A stretch of DNA of 64,000 nt from Flavobacteriaceae bacterium (GCA_018260565.1 JAGLAZ010000007.1:17763-81762), one strand, 5' to 3'. Counted from the stretch's first letter, positions 180 to 7,616 are shown. The notes: generated from the sequence alone by a model not told the origin. Program-made: numbers and translations.

Positions 180-264
180 GGAGAGATGGCAGAGTGGTCG
201 ATTGCGGTAGTCTTGAAAACTATTGACTGTCACAGGTCCGGGGGTTCGAATCCCTCTCTCTCCG
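180..264 (+). tRNA. tRNA-Ser (anticodon UGA), class II with long variable arm
   Basis: Acceptor GGAGAGA (180-186) pairs with TCTCTCC (257-263), discriminator G264. Anticodon loop is CTTGAAA (TGA). It has a long variable arm and a GGTTCGAATCC T-loop. CCA is not encoded. Confidence 0.93.
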
Positions 265-267
265 CAA

Positions 268-1194: not shown

Positions 1195-2286
1195 TTACAA
1201 AAATCTAATCTGGAAATTTAACTTAATGAAACTACCCGCTGTTTCTTCAACGGTATCAGAATTAAGTATAACACCATAATCGCAACGGTGTGGATTACTA
1301 TCTGGGAAGTCAATTTTAGTATGGTTTAATAAATATTCCTGAAAATCGTTCCAGTTATAAATGTGGTAACATTCTAGATCACCATCTTTTTTAACAATGA
1401 TGTAACCTCCATTTGCATTAAATGTACCCGACCAAACTTTACCAGCCTTCATACCTAAGGCTGCATCAATCAGTAGTCTTTTTATTTTATAGGAATAAAA
1501 ATCAGAGTTTAGCGATAAATCAAAATCACAAGGATTTTTTTCAGATAAATATTTTACAAGGTCTGAAAGTTTGGGCGTGTATTTTGTGTAAGCACCCAGA
1601 ACAAGTTCTGCCAATATCTCCGGTAATCTGCTATCCACCAATTCTAAATTTGTTTTGAAAATTTCAGAATTCATTTTGTGGTATTTCAGTGTATAGCCGT
1701 TTTCTTTTAAATACTTAACACGATGGCTGTAGGAAGGCAAACCATTTATCATTTTTATTGTAACCGCAGATGGTTCAGGCTCAATTTTGTAGATGATATT
1801 TGAATTTTTTGAAGCGTTGAATAATGTAGGCTTACTTCCAATGTATGACTTAATACTAAAACCAAGTAAAGGTTCATGCTGAGTAATAGGGTCGTGAATT
1901 ACAACCCTGATATCCGCAGTTTGCACACGCTCGTCAGACAAGGAATTGGTATAGAATTTTGTAAGAGCAGGTTGAGCAAAGTCAAAGTTAAAAGATCTGT
2001 CGCTCATTATTCCTCTGGAGATACCGTCGTATAATTGATCTGCTATTTTTGAAACTTCTTCTACAGAAAGTTCAGACAAAACTTTGCCTTGTGAATTTTG
2101 AATGATTATTTTTTCATTTCTGAGATAATCTAAATCTTCATTACTACCACGGATGATTTTCAGAACTTTATAAAAAATATCCTCATTCTTATTCAAATTC
2201 TTGTCAGCAGCAAAAATATGTCCTTCTGCCAGCAATTTTACAAAAGCATAAAACTCACTCCATTCGCCTTTATTACCTTTAATCAC
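1195..2286 (-). CDS. Type II restriction endonuclease, HpaII-like (putative CCGG specificity)
   Basis: 363-aa ORF whose GTG start overlaps the stop of the upstream methylase (GTGA at 2283-2286). The N-terminus MIKGNKGEWSEFYAFVKLL matches my recollection of the HpaII-family REase signature. Its position directly downstream of an M.HpaII-like methylase supports the call. The family assignment is from memory. Confidence 0.7.
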   Translation of the reverse strand: MIKGNKGEWSEFYAFVKLLAEGHIFAADKNLNKNEDIFYKVLKIIRGSNEDLDYLRNEKIIIQNSQGKVLSELSVEEVSKIADQLYDGISRGIMSDRSFNFDFAQPALTKFYTNSLSDERVQTADIRVVIHDPITQHEPLLGFSIKSYIGSKPTLFNASKNSNIIYKIEPEPSAVTIKMINGLPSYSHRVKYLKENGYTLKYHKMNSEIFKTNLELVDSRLPEILAELVLGAYTKYTPKLSDLVKYLSEKNPCDFDLSLNSDFYSYKIKRLLIDAALGMKAGKVWSGTFNANGGYIIVKKDGDLECYHIYNWNDFQEYLLNHTKIDFPDSNPHRCDYGVILNSDTVEETAGSFIKLNFQIRFL

Positions 2287-3974
2287 AGCTTCTTAATTTT
2301 AAGTTTTCCAATTATCATTTCCGCAGTGGCTTGAATAGCGGGGATAGCGACTGAATTTCCAAATTGTTTGTAAGCTGAAGCATCAGCTACTACTATTTCA
2401 AAATTTTCAGGAAAACCCTGTAATCTTGCCCATTCACGAGGTGTCATTTTTCTGATGCCTTCACGATTAACTTCTCCGGTTATTTTGGTTGTAGGAGTAA
2501 AATCAGTAATGCGATCGTCAAACACTAAATTTCTTTCTCTACCCATACCACCACAAACAACAGAATTAGCAATTTCATCATCGCCAATAATTGCATACCC
2601 AAAACCATTGCCTTTACTTTCGTGTCTTGCCTTATGGTTTTCAAGAGTTTGTAAATACTGTGTTGAAAGATAATACTTTGTAGGAACTACAGATTTTTCT
2701 TTTACATCAGCAAAAGTTAATTTTTTTTCAAACGGTTCAGGATAGGTAAATTCATTAATTCCTGTACTTTTATGGAATCCGACGATAAAAATGCGCTCTC
2801 TATTTTGAGGAACACCGAAGTTTTTTGCATTCATAATTTGAGGCGCAGGCACAAAGTACCCTAAGTCTTCTCTAAGGACATTTAGAATTGTGCTTAATGT
2901 TTTCCCTTTATCGTGATTTCTGAGGCCTTTTACATTTTCAAGAAATATTGCTTTAGGCTGTTTTCTTTTAATTATTTCCGCTACATCAAAAAACAAAGTC
3001 CCTCTGGTATCTTCAAAACCACCTCTTTTGCCAGCAATAGAATAGGCCTGGCATGGAAAGCCTGCGCAAAGAATATCAAAATTCTCAGGGATATATGACT
3101 TTGTTTCCTCTTTGGTAATATCACCAAAAGGCATATCCCCGAAATTATGTTTGTAAGTTCTTTTTGCTTCTTTATCCCATTCGCTAGTGTACACACATTT
3201 GCCTCCCAGATTCTGTAATGCGATTCTAAAACCGCCAATCCCTGCAAACAAATCTATAAAAGTGAATTTCGGACTCTCCACCGGTGGAAACGGAACATTG
3301 AAGTAATCAAACATACCATATTGAATAGCTTCTTCCGCAACTTTATTCGAAAATTTTTCTTCAGGGTATTTTAATTCCAACAGTTCTTTGGCAAAGGCTA
3401 CCGCATCTTTTTTATAGGTGTTTTTTGTTTTTATATCACGGTTATGAATGTAGTGCGTTAAAACTGCCTCGTCGTTATTTTCAGGTTCTATTAGGCGAAT
3501 TTTAAACTGTTTGCCTCCTACGCTGTCTATTGAAATTTTTTCTTTAAAATCCATTCTTCTATTCTCTATTTTTTGCTCAATCTGTTTTACAATCTGATCA
3601 GTATTTTTTAAAATATTCTTACCCCAAAATCTTAAAACTTCCCAACCTTCGGAAAGTAAGGTTTGATTTACCAGTTTGTCTCGTGCAATATTTTTTTCAA
3701 TTTTAGAATGCCAAAACTCAATATTGGATCTATGTTCCATTTTTTTTGTCTGCCAGTCTTTACCATGCCAAAATTCACCGTCTATAAAGATTGCAATTTT
3801 CAATTTTTTAAAAGTAAGGTCGGGTTTTCCGAAAACTGAGTTATCATTCTTCCGGTATCTGTAGCCTTTGGAGAATAAAGCCTTCGCCAAAACAGTTTCA
3901 ATCTTTGTTCCCGAAGATTTCACTGCTTGCATGTTCTTTCTGCGTTGTTCTTCCGTAAGCCTGTCAGTTCTCAT
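2283..3974 (-). CDS. fusion protein: N-terminal Vsr-type very-short-patch repair endonuclease plus C-terminal C5-cytosine DNA methyltransferase
   Basis: One uninterrupted 563-aa ORF. Residues 1-~135 carry Vsr motifs (RRKNMQAVKSSGTKIE, GKPDLTF, FIDGEFWHG, GWEVLRFW). Residues ~237-563 carry C5-MTase motifs I FIDLFAGIGGF, IV GFPCQAYS, VI LENVKGL, VIII QNRERIFIVGF and X GNSVAIP. Confidence 0.9.
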   Translation of the reverse strand: MRTDRLTEEQRRKNMQAVKSSGTKIETVLAKALFSKGYRYRKNDNSVFGKPDLTFKKLKIAIFIDGEFWHGKDWQTKKMEHRSNIEFWHSKIEKNIARDKLVNQTLLSEGWEVLRFWGKNILKNTDQIVKQIEQKIENRRMDFKEKISIDSVGGKQFKIRLIEPENNDEAVLTHYIHNRDIKTKNTYKKDAVAFAKELLELKYPEEKFSNKVAEEAIQYGMFDYFNVPFPPVESPKFTFIDLFAGIGGFRIALQNLGGKCVYTSEWDKEAKRTYKHNFGDMPFGDITKEETKSYIPENFDILCAGFPCQAYSIAGKRGGFEDTRGTLFFDVAEIIKRKQPKAIFLENVKGLRNHDKGKTLSTILNVLREDLGYFVPAPQIMNAKNFGVPQNRERIFIVGFHKSTGINEFTYPEPFEKKLTFADVKEKSVVPTKYYLSTQYLQTLENHKARHESKGNGFGYAIIGDDEIANSVVCGGMGRERNLVFDDRITDFTPTTKITGEVNREGIRKMTPREWARLQGFPENFEIVVADASAYKQFGNSVAIPAIQATAEMIIGKLKIKKL

Positions 3975-3985
3975 TTTTTATGAAA

Positions 3986-4237
3986 TCACTTTTCATTTAC
4001 CTCCGAAAGTAAAATTTCAAATCCCAATACAAAAGCAAATTTTGAGAGGTAATCCAGACTACAGTTAAATTTACCGCTCTCAATTTTTGAAATAGTTGTT
4101 CTGCTGACATTCATTGACTCAGCAACCTGTTCCTGACTTAATCCTTTTTTTTCCCGAAGCTGTTTTAGCGATGAAGCGATTTTATGACGATTCTCCACCA
4201 AATCCTTTTCCGTAAATACTATAGCTGAATTTAACAC
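3986..4237 (-). CDS. XRE-family helix-turn-helix regulator (candidate controller/C protein of the RM operon)
   Basis: 83 aa with a GTG start. The motif LKQLREKKGLSQEQVAESMNVSRTTISKIESGK is a classic HTH_3/XRE motif. It lies 11 nt upstream of the methylase gene. Confidence 0.8.
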   Translation of the reverse strand: MLNSAIVFTEKDLVENRHKIASSLKQLREKKGLSQEQVAESMNVSRTTISKIESGKFNCSLDYLSKFAFVLGFEILLSEVNEK

Positions 4238-4249
4238 AACCTATAATAG

Positions 4250-4648
4250 TTATCTTACAACAAGAGTTCCTACATGTTTTACGCCCAGCTTATCTTGAAC
4301 TGTCAACCAGACATTTGTTTCCACTCCAGTAATACCCTTGGAAAGATCTAAATTAATTTTCTGCTCACTAACATTAATAACTTTACCTAAAACCTCTGAG
4401 TAATCGGCTTTTTGAATGGTTACGAATTCACCAATTAAGTCATTTGTGGAAACTGCAACAACCTCCAAATCTGAAAGTTTTACAGTATTTATCCCAGGAA
4501 AAGGGAGATTAGTCCCGAGCGGACGTATATCTGCACGATCTCTTTGACCATCAATTTTTAGTTCTAGTACTACATAATGTTGGTTCGGGTTTTCATCGGG
4601 AAGTGGCGTATGAAATTTCACAATCTGGCCTTCTTTAGTTGGTTCCAT
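4250..4648 (-). CDS. hypothetical protein, 132 aa, no recognisable family; first gene of the RM operon
   Basis: Clean ATG-started ORF ending 12 nt before the HTH gene on the same strand. Its composition is typical of coding DNA and looks beta-rich (V/I/T/K-rich). I see no signal peptide, TM segment or catalytic motif. Confidence 0.6.
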   Translation of the reverse strand: MEPTKEGQIVKFHTPLPDENPNQHYVVLELKIDGQRDRADIRPLGTNLPFPGINTVKLSDLEVVAVSTNDLIGEFVTIQKADYSEVLGKVINVSEQKINLDLSKGITGVETNVWLTVQDKLGVKHVGTLVVR

Positions 4649-4691
4649 AACTATATATTATTTAATAATGTAAATATAAACACTTTTTATA

Positions 4692-4707
4692 GTTCAATAT
4701 ATTGAAC
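4692..4707. promoter_or_regulatory. perfect 16-bp palindrome GTTCAATATATTGAAC, candidate operator (C-box-like) of the RM operon
   Basis: It lies 44-59 nt upstream of the ATG at 4648 on the operon strand. It sits just upstream of a near-consensus -7 box (TATATTTA on the minus strand). An HTH regulator is encoded in the operon. Confidence 0.45.
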
Positions 4708-5628
4708 GGGTGTTGAATAATTAAATATATATTTGTATTGACAAATCAACGATAAGCGTAAGCTATCGTTGGGTTTCTTAAAACTGCTAAATTTCAAAAA
4801 ATTCCTAAAATGATAGACATTCGCCTGTGCCATATCGGCGTGGGCTGTAAGTCATCAATCCCCCTAAGGTATTACCGCATATAATATGAAAATAATTCAC
4901 TATTGAACTATACTGAATTTTAACTTTTCTTTAAAAACATTATTTATGTATTAGTTATTTGCTTATTGTAAGTTTCATTTTATATCCCCTGCTCCACAAA
5001 GTGTCCTAACTTTGAGGAAAAAAAAACGGAGATAATTGAATGGTTTTGTATTGTAAACTGCAACTAAAGTTTAAATAAGAAAATAGTTGTTTTTTTTATA
5101 TCAAACCTTTCCTCTAAATGAATAAAAAATTTATATTTACCTCTTAATCTCATTAATTTTAAATTAAGTCATTAAACATACCACAGTTGCTTTGAAAGAT
5201 TTAAAAGTTTATTTAACAGACTACCATACTGACTATACGAGAAAATACACCTAAGTAATCAGAATAAAGTATATTTCATTGAGCAAATTCCAGTGGGACT
5301 GATCGGACGAGAATTTAATGGTGGATAGTTTTAAAGGTTATTAGCGGAAGGAGAAATACTAATGCAGTTATGGAAACGTGGAAAATATATGGGAAAAAGA
5401 TAAAGAATTGAACCGAAGCTACACAGCAGATTTTGAGGTATATGGAAAAGAATTTAGAAAGAATGTTAAATCTGAAGTTGAATCTTATATTGATCAGATA
5501 GTGAAGAAAATAAACATTATTAAAGCACTTTCAAACCTATAAAATAATGATGGAGTCAAGAAAACCATTTCAAAAACAGGGAGAAACTGAAAATCCATAA
5601 GAGTAAGGAATTCAAAAGATATAATTTT

Positions 5629-6021
5629 ATGAAAAACCTTTTAATATTAGCAATTGTATCGCTAATGTTTGGTATTGCAAATGCCCAAAGAATACAAAAC
5701 AGTTCTGGAAGTACTATTGGAATGATAGAAAGTGGAAAAGTAAAAAACAGTTCTGGAAGTACAATAGGCTATATTGAAAATGGCCGTATTAAGAACAGTT
5801 CTGGGAGTACCATTGGTATATATAATAATGGGCGTGTACAGAATGCTTCCGGTAGCACAATTGGCTATATAGATAAAGGCCGAGTGAAAAACAGCTCTGG
5901 AAATACCATTGGTATGATTGAAAATGGACGCATTAAAGATGGTTCAGGAAAAACACTTGGTTCTTATAGTGGGGTTAAACCTATTGATGCAGCACTTTTT
6001 CTCCTGTTCTTTTTTAAATAA
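5629..6021 (+). CDS. secreted tandem-repeat protein (6 x 16-aa NSSGSTIGxIExGRVK repeats; resembles '5-fold beta-flower' proteins)
   Basis: N-terminal signal peptide MKNLLILAIVSLMFGIANAQ, then six 16-residue repeats, then a hydrophobic tail DAALFLLFFFK. Confidence 0.75.
   Translation: MKNLLILAIVSLMFGIANAQRIQNSSGSTIGMIESGKVKNSSGSTIGYIENGRIKNSSGSTIGIYNNGRVQNASGSTIGYIDKGRVKNSSGNTIGMIENGRIKDGSGKTLGSYSGVKPIDAALFLLFFFK
5698..5985 (+). repeat. six in-frame 48-bp tandem repeats inside the repeat-protein gene
   Basis: Units start with aacagttctggaagtac... at 5698, 5746, 5794, 5842 and 5890, with a degenerate sixth unit at 5938. The copies diverge mostly at third codon positions. Confidence 0.85.
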
Positions 6022-6152: not shown

Positions 6153-7616
6153 TTATCCGCGTAAACTATTGATATAATTTTGCATACTATTTTCAAAATT
6201 TAAACCGTTATTCAGTTTTTGAATACCTATTTTTTTATGGGAAGAAAGTGCCCAGAGAACAATCTCTTGATACACATATAAATCTGACTCCTGTAAATCC
6301 GGGACATATTTTTCTACCAGTTCCCTTAATGCGGGGACTTTATTTAGTTCTGCTTGGTATATAGCATCAGAAGCTTCATTTTGTAATAGGACTTCATATC
6401 CTCCGGAAAACCACTGAATAACCTCATCATAAACAGATGGTTTTGTCTTTTTTTCTAACTTTTCTACTTTCGGAAATAATTCATTAAATATAGTCTTTAC
6501 CGCGTTTTGGATAAGATTTTCAGCTACTATACCTGCACCGGCAAGTTCTCCCTCATACACTAATTCTACCTTACCCGTGATTGCTGGGACTATTCCCATA
6601 AAATCTGACAACCGAACTGAAGTTTTAGTATCACCACTTCTCAGCATTCTGCGTTCTGCAGTACTCATTAAATTTTGAAAGGCTGTAATGCTCATACGCG
6701 CACTCACGCCACTTTTAGCATCTATATATTCATTTTCCCGAGCCTCAAAACTTATTTGTTCCAGCACATCATGTGCTATTTCTGGAATATAAATGTTGGG
6801 AATATCTTTTGCGTCTTTATGAGCCTCCTGAGCCGTAATTTTTTTTGCTATTTCCCTTGATTTAGGGTAATGGGTAAGAATCTGTGAACCTATTCGGTCT
6901 TTAAGTGGCGTCACTATGCTACCGCGGTTGGTATAATCTTCAGGATTTGCCGTAAAAACGAACTGTACATCCAGGGGTAATCTCAATTTGAATCCCCGAA
7001 TCTGAATATCGCCTTCTTGCAAAATATTAAAAAGAGCGACCTGTATTTTAGCTTGTAAATCTGGTAATTCATTGATAACGAATATACAGCGGTTCGCTCT
7101 AGGAATCATTCCAAAATGAAGGACCCTATCATCAGCATAGCTAAGTTTTAAATTGGCCGCTTTAATAGGATCCACATCCCCAATGAGATCTGCAACGGTA
7201 ACATCCGGCGTAGCTAATTTTTCTGAAAACCTACCTTCACGATGAAGCCAAGTTATAGGAGTATTTTCTCCTTTTTCCTCAATACGCTCTTTGGCAAAGC
7301 GAGAGATAGGAGCAAAAGGGTCGTCATTAATCTCGGATCCTTCCACTACGGGAATATATTCATCTAACAAGCTTATCATTAGCCTTGCTAATCGTGTTTT
7401 TGCTTGTCCCCGAAGACCCAGCAAATTGATATTATGTTTAGAGAGAATGGCACGCTCCAACTCTGGAATTACAGTCTCCTCATATCCATGAACGCCTGGA
7501 AAAACGGTTTCTCCACTGTTTATTTTCTGAATCAAATTCTCCCGAAGCTCTTCTTTGATTGATTTTTGTTTATATCCTGCAGCTTTTAAATCGCCGAATG
7601 TTTTAATAGTATTCAT
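6153..7616 (-). CDS. ChlI/BchI-type AAA+ ATPase (Mg-chelatase subunit I-like; often auto-annotated as a sigma-54-interacting regulator)
   Basis: 487 aa. It has a Walker-A-like LLGLRGQAKTRLAR, a Walker B IFVINELPD, and a FTANPEDYTNRGSIVTPLKDRIG block typical of ChlI-like ATPases. Confidence 0.75.
   Translation of the reverse strand: MNTIKTFGDLKAAGYKQKSIKEELRENLIQKINSGETVFPGVHGYEETVIPELERAILSKHNINLLGLRGQAKTRLARLMISLLDEYIPVVEGSEINDDPFAPISRFAKERIEEKGENTPITWLHREGRFSEKLATPDVTVADLIGDVDPIKAANLKLSYADDRVLHFGMIPRANRCIFVINELPDLQAKIQVALFNILQEGDIQIRGFKLRLPLDVQFVFTANPEDYTNRGSIVTPLKDRIGSQILTHYPKSREIAKKITAQEAHKDAKDIPNIYIPEIAHDVLEQISFEARENEYIDAKSGVSARMSITAFQNLMSTAERRMLRSGDTKTSVRLSDFMGIVPAITGKVELVYEGELAGAGIVAENLIQNAVKTIFNELFPKVEKLEKKTKPSVYDEVIQWFSGGYEVLLQNEASDAIYQAELNKVPALRELVEKYVPDLQESDLYVYQEIVLWALSSHKKIGIQKLNNGLNFENSMQNYINSLRG

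Follow-up and report, generated by a model that had tools for sequence, protein, structure and literature searches.

We analyzed a 64,000-nucleotide (nt) stretch of DNA from a Flavobacteriaceae bacterium (GCA_018260565.1 JAGLAZ010000007.1:17763-81762), hereafter the window, which carries a compact restriction-modification (RM) operon on its minus strand; all positions are counted from the first letter of the window. An open reading frame (ORF) call over the window places four tightly packed ORFs downstream of a perfect 16-bp palindrome, GTTCAATATATTGAAC (4692-4707, no strand). The first gene (4250-4648, ATG start) encodes a protein of 132 amino acids, here called U132. It is followed by an XRE-family helix-turn-helix (HTH) regulator of 83 amino acids (3986-4237, GTG start; hereafter XRE), a 563-amino-acid fusion of Vsr and a C5-methyltransferase (2283-3974) and an HpaII-family Type IIP endonuclease of 363 amino acids (1195-2286, GTG start), all on the minus strand. 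Gaps of 12 nt (4238-4249) and 11 nt (3975-3985) separate U132 from XRE and XRE from the fusion, while the methylase stop and the endonuclease start overlap by 4 nt, GTGA (2283-2286). This gene order, with its gaps, overlap and palindrome, had been described in an earlier note on the same DNA, and all of it was reproduced by the ORF call and the sequence; the labels that the note gave to the last three genes (XRE, Vsr::C5-methyltransferase and HpaII-like restriction endonuclease) were confirmed by domain searches.

The endonuclease matches RE_HpaII (PF09561) over its full length in Pfam, with residues 5-362 aligned to profile positions 1-359 of 359 (E 6.9e-100), and also gives a PADLOC REase_II match (8.6e-71). 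The N-terminus of the 563-amino-acid protein is assigned to Vsr by both Pfam (PF03852, residues 3-75, 9.5e-31, 105.9 bits against a cut-off of 27) and NCBIfam (vsr TIGR00632, residues 3-119, 155.4 bits against a cut-off of 97.85), and residues 237-555 form a DNA_methylase domain (PF00145, E 2.8e-101; TIGR00675, 314 bits). On the DNA, the Vsr domain occupies approximately nt 3558-3968 and the C5-cytosine methyltransferase approximately nt 2310-3266. These matches support the earlier reading of the operon as restriction, modification and Vsr repair joined to a controller-type HTH protein. The fusion of Vsr to the methylase, which the note had regarded as an unexplained oddity, turns out to be commonplace: PF03852 and PF00145 are both present in 120 of the 120 best-scoring fusion clusters (71-86% identical, about 560 amino acids), whose sources are Chryseobacterium, Empedobacter, Capnocytophaga, Dysgonomonas and numerous metagenomes; one homologue carries the source name “modification methyltransferase HpaII”. 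Judged by these clusters, the fusion is a standard Bacteroidota architecture and no novelty. Empedobacter brevis, Chryseobacterium aquaticum and Dysgonomonas reticulitermitis carry the fusion followed by an HpaII-family endonuclease without U132 or XRE upstream; the methylase-nuclease pair thus stands alone in three genera and is therefore a self-sufficient module. By its gene content the locus holds a mobile, self-contained and working-looking Type II RM pair of the CCGG type (HpaII family), for which recognition of CCGG and the blocking of cleavage by C5 methylation are predicted from homology. CCGG avoidance was considered as a sign of activity and set aside as uninformative (observed/expected 0.83 in the window).

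The palindrome ends 43 nt before the U132 ATG and occurs as a single copy in the window with up to two mismatches allowed (0.12 expected by chance; a weaker second copy was not searched for systematically). We collected 64 genome loci with relatives of U132, 61 of them with enough upstream sequence, and searched these for GT(T/G)CAATATATTG(C/A)AC with up to 2 mismatches. In 46 of these 61 loci the operator is present, each time as one copy that lies 44-84 nt ahead of the first gene; its recurrence at the same place argues that the palindrome is not a chance match. The consensus of this operator family is GTTCAATATATTGCAC, which can also be written GTTCAATATATTG(A/C)AC. A metagenome scan for the operator together with a -7 box yielded 80 further loci. 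U132 is the first gene in 62 of the 77 metagenome loci with at least 150 nt downstream; where 900 nt or more of downstream sequence is available, 53 of 64 loci have U132 followed by XRE. In approximately 11 of these 64, operator, promoter and leader are followed directly by XRE, or by an acidic ORF of 80 amino acids and then XRE, and Dcm cargo follows XRE in metagenome operator loci that have no U132. Loci that encode U132, or its N-terminal half alone, without XRE are missing the operator. Kept without U132 and missing without XRE, the operator therefore tracks XRE and not U132.

Bacteroidota promoters have a -7 box of consensus TAnnTTTG and a -33 element with TTG. A TAnnTTTG box lies 13-22 nt after the operator in related loci, and the candidate box of the window, TATATTTA (4671-4678, minus strand, read from the sequence), lies 13 nt after it; the TTG of the right half-site of the operator would therefore sit at the position expected of a -33 element. 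The candidate box also implies a short leader of approximately 15-20 nt. The regulator itself matches HTH_3 in Pfam (E 4.4e-15) and Control_protein in PADLOC (7.5e-14), and by analogy with the controller (C) proteins of RM systems the palindrome is probably the binding site of an XRE dimer. Because the operator lies over the putative -33 element and tracks the XRE gene, we infer, with good support, that XRE is a C-protein-like autorepressor acting at the palindrome. This Bacteroidota cassette of operator and regulator is widespread and nearly invariant and, as far as our literature search showed, undescribed; no paper was found on the U132 family or on this operator.

Two further upstream elements were seen among the collected loci. 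A conserved element, AACAGCGGGGGCAACGCTATAAATTCTGCAC, is found in long-leader cassettes (locus L004, ~6960-6980, and approximately 30 other loci), where it ends 21-22 nt before the first ATG; it is present whether U132 or XRE is the first gene, and is missing from the window. It forms a stem of 3-4 bp (GCG/CGC, sometimes GTG/CAC) around a GGGGCAA loop, with few compensatory changes. As a known RNA family it was rejected, with no Rfam match; a second operator and an mRNA element are both conceivable roles. In Gelidibacter, Winogradskyella, Polaribacter, Leeuwenhoekiella and Nonlabens (L049-L051, L055-L057, L059), loci that encode only the N-terminal half of U132 share a different conserved upstream motif, approximately TG(C/A)TAC(T/A)TATTGTATGTTGAC, instead of the XRE operator, and have no XRE gene. 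This motif lies approximately 45-70 nt before the gene.

The claim that U132 belongs to no recognisable family was upheld by Pfam, NCBIfam, PADLOC and PHROGs, where nothing rises above noise (HAS-barrel, RimP, the FliI N-terminus and phrog_1974). A Pfam scan of 70 family members gave only sub-threshold matches to DUF2187 and RimP-C SH3, and a U132 profile found no match among PDB sequences. No relatives were found in IMG/VR or among GenBank phages, and a phage origin of U132 was rejected for this reason. Homologues form 413 clusters at 90% identity, with 221 representatives at 50%, among 1.84 billion proteins, and they are essentially restricted to Bacteroidota and neighbouring lineages (Balneolaceae, Ignavibacteriales). 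Full-length U132 was found in 52 genome loci, with XRE adjacent or nearby in 48 and a U132-XRE gap of 4-17 nt. A form consisting of the N-terminal barrel only (80-124 amino acids; the fold is described below) occurs in ten loci, with XRE detected nearby in only two, and is encoded directly ahead of Dcm with EcoRII, Dcm with HNH, or Dcm with BsaWI and HpaII endonucleases. Within 4.5 kb, 43 of the 52 full-length loci and nine of the ten short-form loci encode a C5-methylase; Vsr is present in 20 of the 52, and an HpaII-like enzyme in only four. Homologues of U132 are therefore found overwhelmingly beside restriction and defence genes, which is clearly contrary to the refuting outcome named in the note (homologues mainly outside such neighbourhoods), and the part of the earlier expectation that concerned such genes in general stands, whereas enrichment next to HpaII-like systems in particular does not.

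At least six classes of cargo are encoded behind U132 and XRE: Vsr with Dcm and an HpaII endonuclease; Dcm with a GHKL/MORC-like ATPase, Z1 and a DUF4420 nuclease; Dcm with HNH, a McrB-like protein and DUF2357/PD-(D/E)XK; Vsr::Dcm with an NgoFVII-like enzyme; Dcm with a DrmE-like protein and a NERD helicase (DISARM-like); and a 940-amino-acid protein with a DEAD helicase of 1295 amino acids. The same cargo types (Dcm-GHKL-Z1-DUF4420 and Vsr-Dcm-McrB-like) are seen behind one and the same operator whether or not U132 is present, and on plasmid pTS of Spirosoma taeanense a full-length U132 gene lies without XRE ahead of Vsr-Dcm-MvaI/BcnI. As the same cassettes occur with and without U132, the cargo varies and U132 occurs without XRE, gene order in these loci shows U132 as a facultative accessory, independent of cargo, XRE and operator. 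The general architecture that the loci display is an operator-promoter, an optional U132, an optional 80-amino-acid ORF, XRE and a variable restriction cargo. The suggestion in the earlier note that U132 is an integral RM component was thus not borne out, given methylase-nuclease pairs without U132 or XRE, operator-XRE-cargo cassettes without U132, and U132 without XRE. Links to mobile elements include one relative of the window cassette inside an integrative element (integrase, HTH_17 and a VapE-like gene) and one cassette on a plasmid.

Several neighbourhoods deserve mention in their own right. The closest relative of the window cassette (L161, 10505-13964) has a U132 that is 75% identical and a Vsr::methylase that is 86% identical; co-oriented McrB-like (AAA_5) and McrC-like genes come after its HpaII-like endonuclease gene, so that one gene string joins an RM system writing 5-methylcytosine (5mC) and a McrBC-type system. 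The 80-amino-acid ORF, a second facultative insert between promoter and XRE, has an isoelectric point (pI) of about 4.5, is probably helical, follows the pattern M..Y..EEEKLKHPYYKLMEL...WSRLDLIEWLCWNDRNGVY and has no Pfam or PHROGs match. It is found in L002 (7438-7677), L008, L010, L013, L024, L026, L029, L030, L032 and L034, and without U132 in L136, L127 and L119. Distant U132 subfamilies (139, 142 and 147 amino acids; L065-L071) lie in conserved series of small ORFs, four to six in number and without annotation, between a divergently transcribed WYL regulator, mostly accompanied by an HTH_11 gene, and very large defence genes. The latter encode an AAA_11/12 helicase with an MTES_1575 nuclease, SNF2-PLD with an MmeI/Eco57I-type enzyme, or a Type IIG enzyme.

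The structure of U132 was modelled with AlphaFold2 from a 70-sequence alignment that included divergent subfamilies, giving a mean predicted local distance difference test score (pLDDT) of 93.6 and a predicted template modelling score (pTM) of 0.79. An earlier alignment of 24 close homologues had given a pLDDT of 60 for residues 1-61, and its Foldseek matches were discarded. The predicted fold consists of two five-stranded, small SH3/Tudor/KOW-like beta-barrels spanning residues 8-63 and 75-131, by which we divide the protein into an N-barrel (residues 1-66, nt 4451-4648, minus strand) and a C-barrel (residues 67-132, nt 4253-4450, minus strand). Foldseek matches in the PDB are weak (best E 3e-3, TM 0.3, 9-17% identity) and include tandem Tudor, Agenet and SAWADEE domains, the N-terminal barrels of R.Hpy99I and Spt5 KOW; among viral models the lowest E value is 6e-4, and most of these matches are uncharacterised phage proteins. 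The profile and structure searches (AlphaFold plus Foldseek) proposed in the earlier note thus give a two-barrel fold with generic weak matches only. An internal duplication was rejected, as hhalign found no relationship between the N-barrel and the C-barrel.

U132 is acidic (pI 5.3, net charge about -5), as is its family (median pI 5.06); the N-barrel-only forms range from pI 4.6 to 5.7, except for one 124-amino-acid outlier at 8.5. The acidity of the family argues against DNA binding and for protein binding. U132 is not very highly charged for a DNA mimic, and the known mimics Ocr, ArdA and Arn were neither among the Foldseek matches listed nor found by the PDB sequence search. Conservation is highest in the loop that joins N-barrel strands 1 and 2, H-T-P-L-P-D-E-N-P-N-Q, which is kept in the N-barrel-only forms and in fusions. 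U132 identity is 64-76% across classes of Bacteroidota. At the same loci the median pairwise identity is 66.7% for U132 versus 52.1% for XRE, with U132 the higher in 86% of 946 pairs, and the two identities are correlated (r = 0.57). That U132 is more conserved than XRE points to a conserved target and not to the variable cargo. Long proteins of 209-1328 amino acids contain one or other barrel as a single module; in the longest (P0195, 1328 amino acids) a Y-A-K/E-G-G junction is repeated ten times, and two of the copies flank the C-barrel. By analogy these long proteins look like products of mobile elements, although this is suggestive only.

As a whole, these observations are best explained, in a tentative reading to which we give a little less than an even chance, by a portable control cassette placed on an RM pair, with U132 as a protein binder that aids establishment. 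The RM pair stands behind a portable Bacteroidota cassette of operator-promoter, optional U132 and XRE. An XRE dimer would bind the palindrome over the -33 region and repress the whole operon, the XRE gene included, such that the operon would fire on entry into a repressor-free cell and then be throttled. U132, as the first protein made from the operon, would act by protein-protein binding, with the invariant acidic loop P-D-E-N-P-x-Q between N-barrel strands 1 and 2 as its likely contact surface. Its target would be some conserved component of the cell or of a resident defence, and by binding it U132 would assist the incoming methylase/nuclease cassette in establishing itself. Methyl-dependent restriction of the newly 5mC-marked chromosome is a candidate target because U132 is strongly linked with C5-methylases. 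The single barrels in long multi-module proteins may serve a similar purpose.

The role of U132 as a protein-binding accessory for establishment or counter-defence is proposed with low certainty. A broader version, which we regard as clearly unlikely, makes the barrels a new class of cargo-independent accessory at the front of 5mC-type restriction cassettes, which would neutralise a conserved resident function, such as methyl-dependent (Type IV) restriction or some other protein of defence or repair. Two-barrel proteins, free N-barrels and the single barrels of long multi-module proteins would all be members of this class, and it would let a cassette or mobile element settle without killing, or being rejected by, its host. 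Several points weigh against this line of explanation. The binding partner of U132 and its establishment phenotype are hypothetical, and binding and repression by XRE are argued from position and from analogy with C proteins. A net charge of about -5 is far from that of the classical DNA-mimic anti-restriction proteins, no relative of U132 was found in the phage collections, and the long multi-module proteins show no recognised domain and no mobile-element hallmark in Pfam or PHROGs. Cargos without a methylase (L025, L031, L063, L040), together with the McrBC-like genes in the same operon of one relative, weaken the version directed at Type IV restriction.

The close association of U132 with XRE allows another reading, possible if rather unlikely, in which U132 is an anti-repressor (by sequestration) or a co-repressor of XRE that, being translated from one mRNA with XRE, sharpens or delays autorepression and times nuclease expression after entry. 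XRE lies directly after U132, at 4-17 nt, in 48 of the 52 full-length loci, an acidic protein is what would be expected of an occupier of a DNA-binding surface, and there is a precedent in DMP19, which blocks DNA binding by NHTF (PMC3384305). The correlated identities of the two proteins fit as well, but such a correlation is expected from physical linkage alone. It also counts against a role tied to XRE that operator, XRE and cargo occur without U132 in approximately 17% of cassettes, that full-length U132 and N-barrel-only forms occur without XRE and operator, and that single barrels appear in unrelated multi-module proteins. The same pairing of a small protein with an XRE-HTH gene recalls a toxin-antitoxin (addiction) module, with the toxin first as in HigBA or MqsRA, that stabilises the island and has no part in RM regulation. 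Near-overlapping genes and an autoregulated palindromic operator are typical of reverse-order type II modules, and the best NCBIfam match of XRE is a toxin-antitoxin antitoxin family (Y4mF/HipB-type, 49 bits, below the cut-off of 71.65). However, U132 resembles no toxin fold or family in Pfam, NCBIfam, PADLOC or Foldseek and is acidic, all-beta and without a catalytic motif, operator and XRE are found without U132, and U132 in turn lies beside RM genes with no XRE, where an unopposed toxin would be lethal; we consider this explanation very improbable. The option of a second effector, raised in the earlier note, is likewise unlikely for an acidic all-beta protein of 132 amino acids without a catalytic signature.

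Chances seem slim that U132 is a KOW/Tudor-like factor that binds nucleic acid or RNA polymerase and provides processivity, antitermination or translational coupling for a long operon. NusG paralogues lead operons in Bacteroides, and U132 is likewise the first gene of its operon. Some JGI records name homologues “transcription antitermination factor NusG”, the weak Foldseek matches include Spt5 KOW (3p8b_B, root mean square deviation 3.0, 61 columns) and a T4-like phage “transcriptional regulator”, and the C-barrel, read directly, has the KOW-like pattern G-x-V-x-I...G-K-V. Nonetheless, there is no NGN domain, and 132 amino acids with two barrels leave no room for one; U132 of the window has no NusG or KOW match in Pfam or NCBIfam, and for the 70 members the 25 Pfam families listed as most often matched (down to single-member matches) do not include KOW, which leaves at most a few weak KOW matches. 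Moreover, the acidic pI argues against nucleic-acid binding, the same operons occur without U132, and the conserved leader element is independent of U132, being present without it and missing from the window. It is scarcely credible that U132 is a functionless hitchhiking ORF that only tunes translation of the regulator as an upstream ORF. U132 is indeed dispensable for the cassette architecture, yet its protein sequence is strongly conserved across Bacteroidota classes, above that of XRE, its predicted two-domain fold is confident, and each domain is reused independently in other proteins.

Only for a few C-protein systems of proteobacteria is it understood how a toxic restriction cassette gets into a new genome and stays there. 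The cassette described here is portable across Bacteroidota and their relatives, with one nearly invariant operator, one XRE regulator and at least six kinds of restriction or defence cargo. It offers natural comparisons (operator and cargo with or without U132; U132 with or without XRE) that make the function of U132 directly testable. If U132 were an establishment or counter-defence factor it would represent a new type of accessory for RM mobility, and if it tunes the C protein it would add a new level to the control of RM timing. For genetic work in Bacteroidota, the operator together with its regulator might also be of use as a compact, regulated promoter.

With regard to its surroundings, the cassette and its flanks lie between tRNA-Ser(tga) (180-265, plus strand), which flanks the island, and the next chromosomal genes. 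The DNA on either side (266-1194 and 4710-5540) is AT-rich, with a GC content of 0.24-0.30, and essentially non-coding. Neither an integrase nor an att-like direct repeat was found in the 64-kb window, and integration of the island at tRNA-Ser was rejected for this reason. Cassette and flanks together resemble a small island, decayed or otherwise acquired. A near-perfect hairpin, AACGATAGC-TTAC-GCTTATCGTT (4748-4770, minus strand), lies approximately 40 nt upstream of the operator and may be a terminator or insulator at the cassette edge. A scan for sigma-70 promoters and terminators gave no more matches than in shuffled sequence, and the sigma-70 model is unsuited to Bacteroidota promoters. 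Beyond the flank, Rfam places a DUF805 RNA cis-regulatory motif (RF03081) at 5545-5614 on the plus strand (67.3 bits, gathering score 51.1), directly ahead of an ORF (5629-6021) for a secreted-looking “5-fold beta-flower” protein of 130 amino acids (PF21785, 7.8e-34) whose gene contains five tandem repeats of 48 nt each.

Among known systems, those of the HpaII type (CCGG) have an associated Vsr gene, as at the HpaII locus of Haemophilus parainfluenzae. The present locus resembles them in its full-length RE_HpaII enzyme, its adjacent C5-methyltransferase and its Vsr, which acts on T:G mismatches from deaminated 5mC. It differs in that Vsr is fused to the methylase and in the U132-XRE control cassette, which most homologous pairs lack. 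In common with RM systems governed by C proteins (C.PvuII, C.AhdI, C.Esp1396I, C.EcoRV), it has a small XRE-HTH gene, co-oriented with and upstream of the nuclease, and a palindrome in its own promoter. Whereas C.PvuII-type systems have a 35-bp double box with a GTG spacer, there is here a single 16-bp palindrome over the presumed -33 element. The regulator apparently controls the methylase as well as the nuclease from one promoter, and an extra gene (U132, elsewhere the 80-amino-acid acidic ORF) is inserted between promoter and C gene, in both of which the locus departs from C-protein systems. C-boxes with a single palindrome are known (EcoRV and EcoO109I types), and a Bacteroidetes branch of C proteins, “motif 9”, has previously been set aside as atypical (Sorokin et al. 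2009, PMC2632904).

For U132 itself, the Neisseria protein DMP19 offers a possible functional analogue: it is a small acidic DNA mimic that keeps NHTF, an XRE repressor with 40% identity to C.BclI, from binding DNA (PMC3384305). The likeness lies in a small acidic protein paired with a C-protein-like XRE repressor that autoregulates via a palindrome; U132 differs in having no DMP19 match in the PDB sequence search and in occurring also without an XRE partner. As modules of long beads-on-a-string proteins, the barrels recall the polyvalent proteins known from phages and conjugative elements (Iyer et al. 2017, PMC5512222), although no hallmark domain was detected in these long proteins and U132 is a free-standing chromosomal or plasmid gene. 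Tandem Tudor, Agenet, SAWADEE and KOW proteins (UHRF1 TTD, SHH1, Spt5 KOW, R.Hpy99I 3fc3) share the two consecutive five-stranded SH3-like barrels and are the top Foldseek matches; however, these are weak matches to a generic fold, without membership of any sequence family, and the two barrels of U132 are not detectably related. Overall, every membership feature that can be tested computationally was found, and by these the locus is a member of the HpaII-family and C-protein-regulated RM systems. What appears new, from the sequences compared, is a Bacteroidota operator-regulator cassette with an undescribed two-barrel accessory family at its head.

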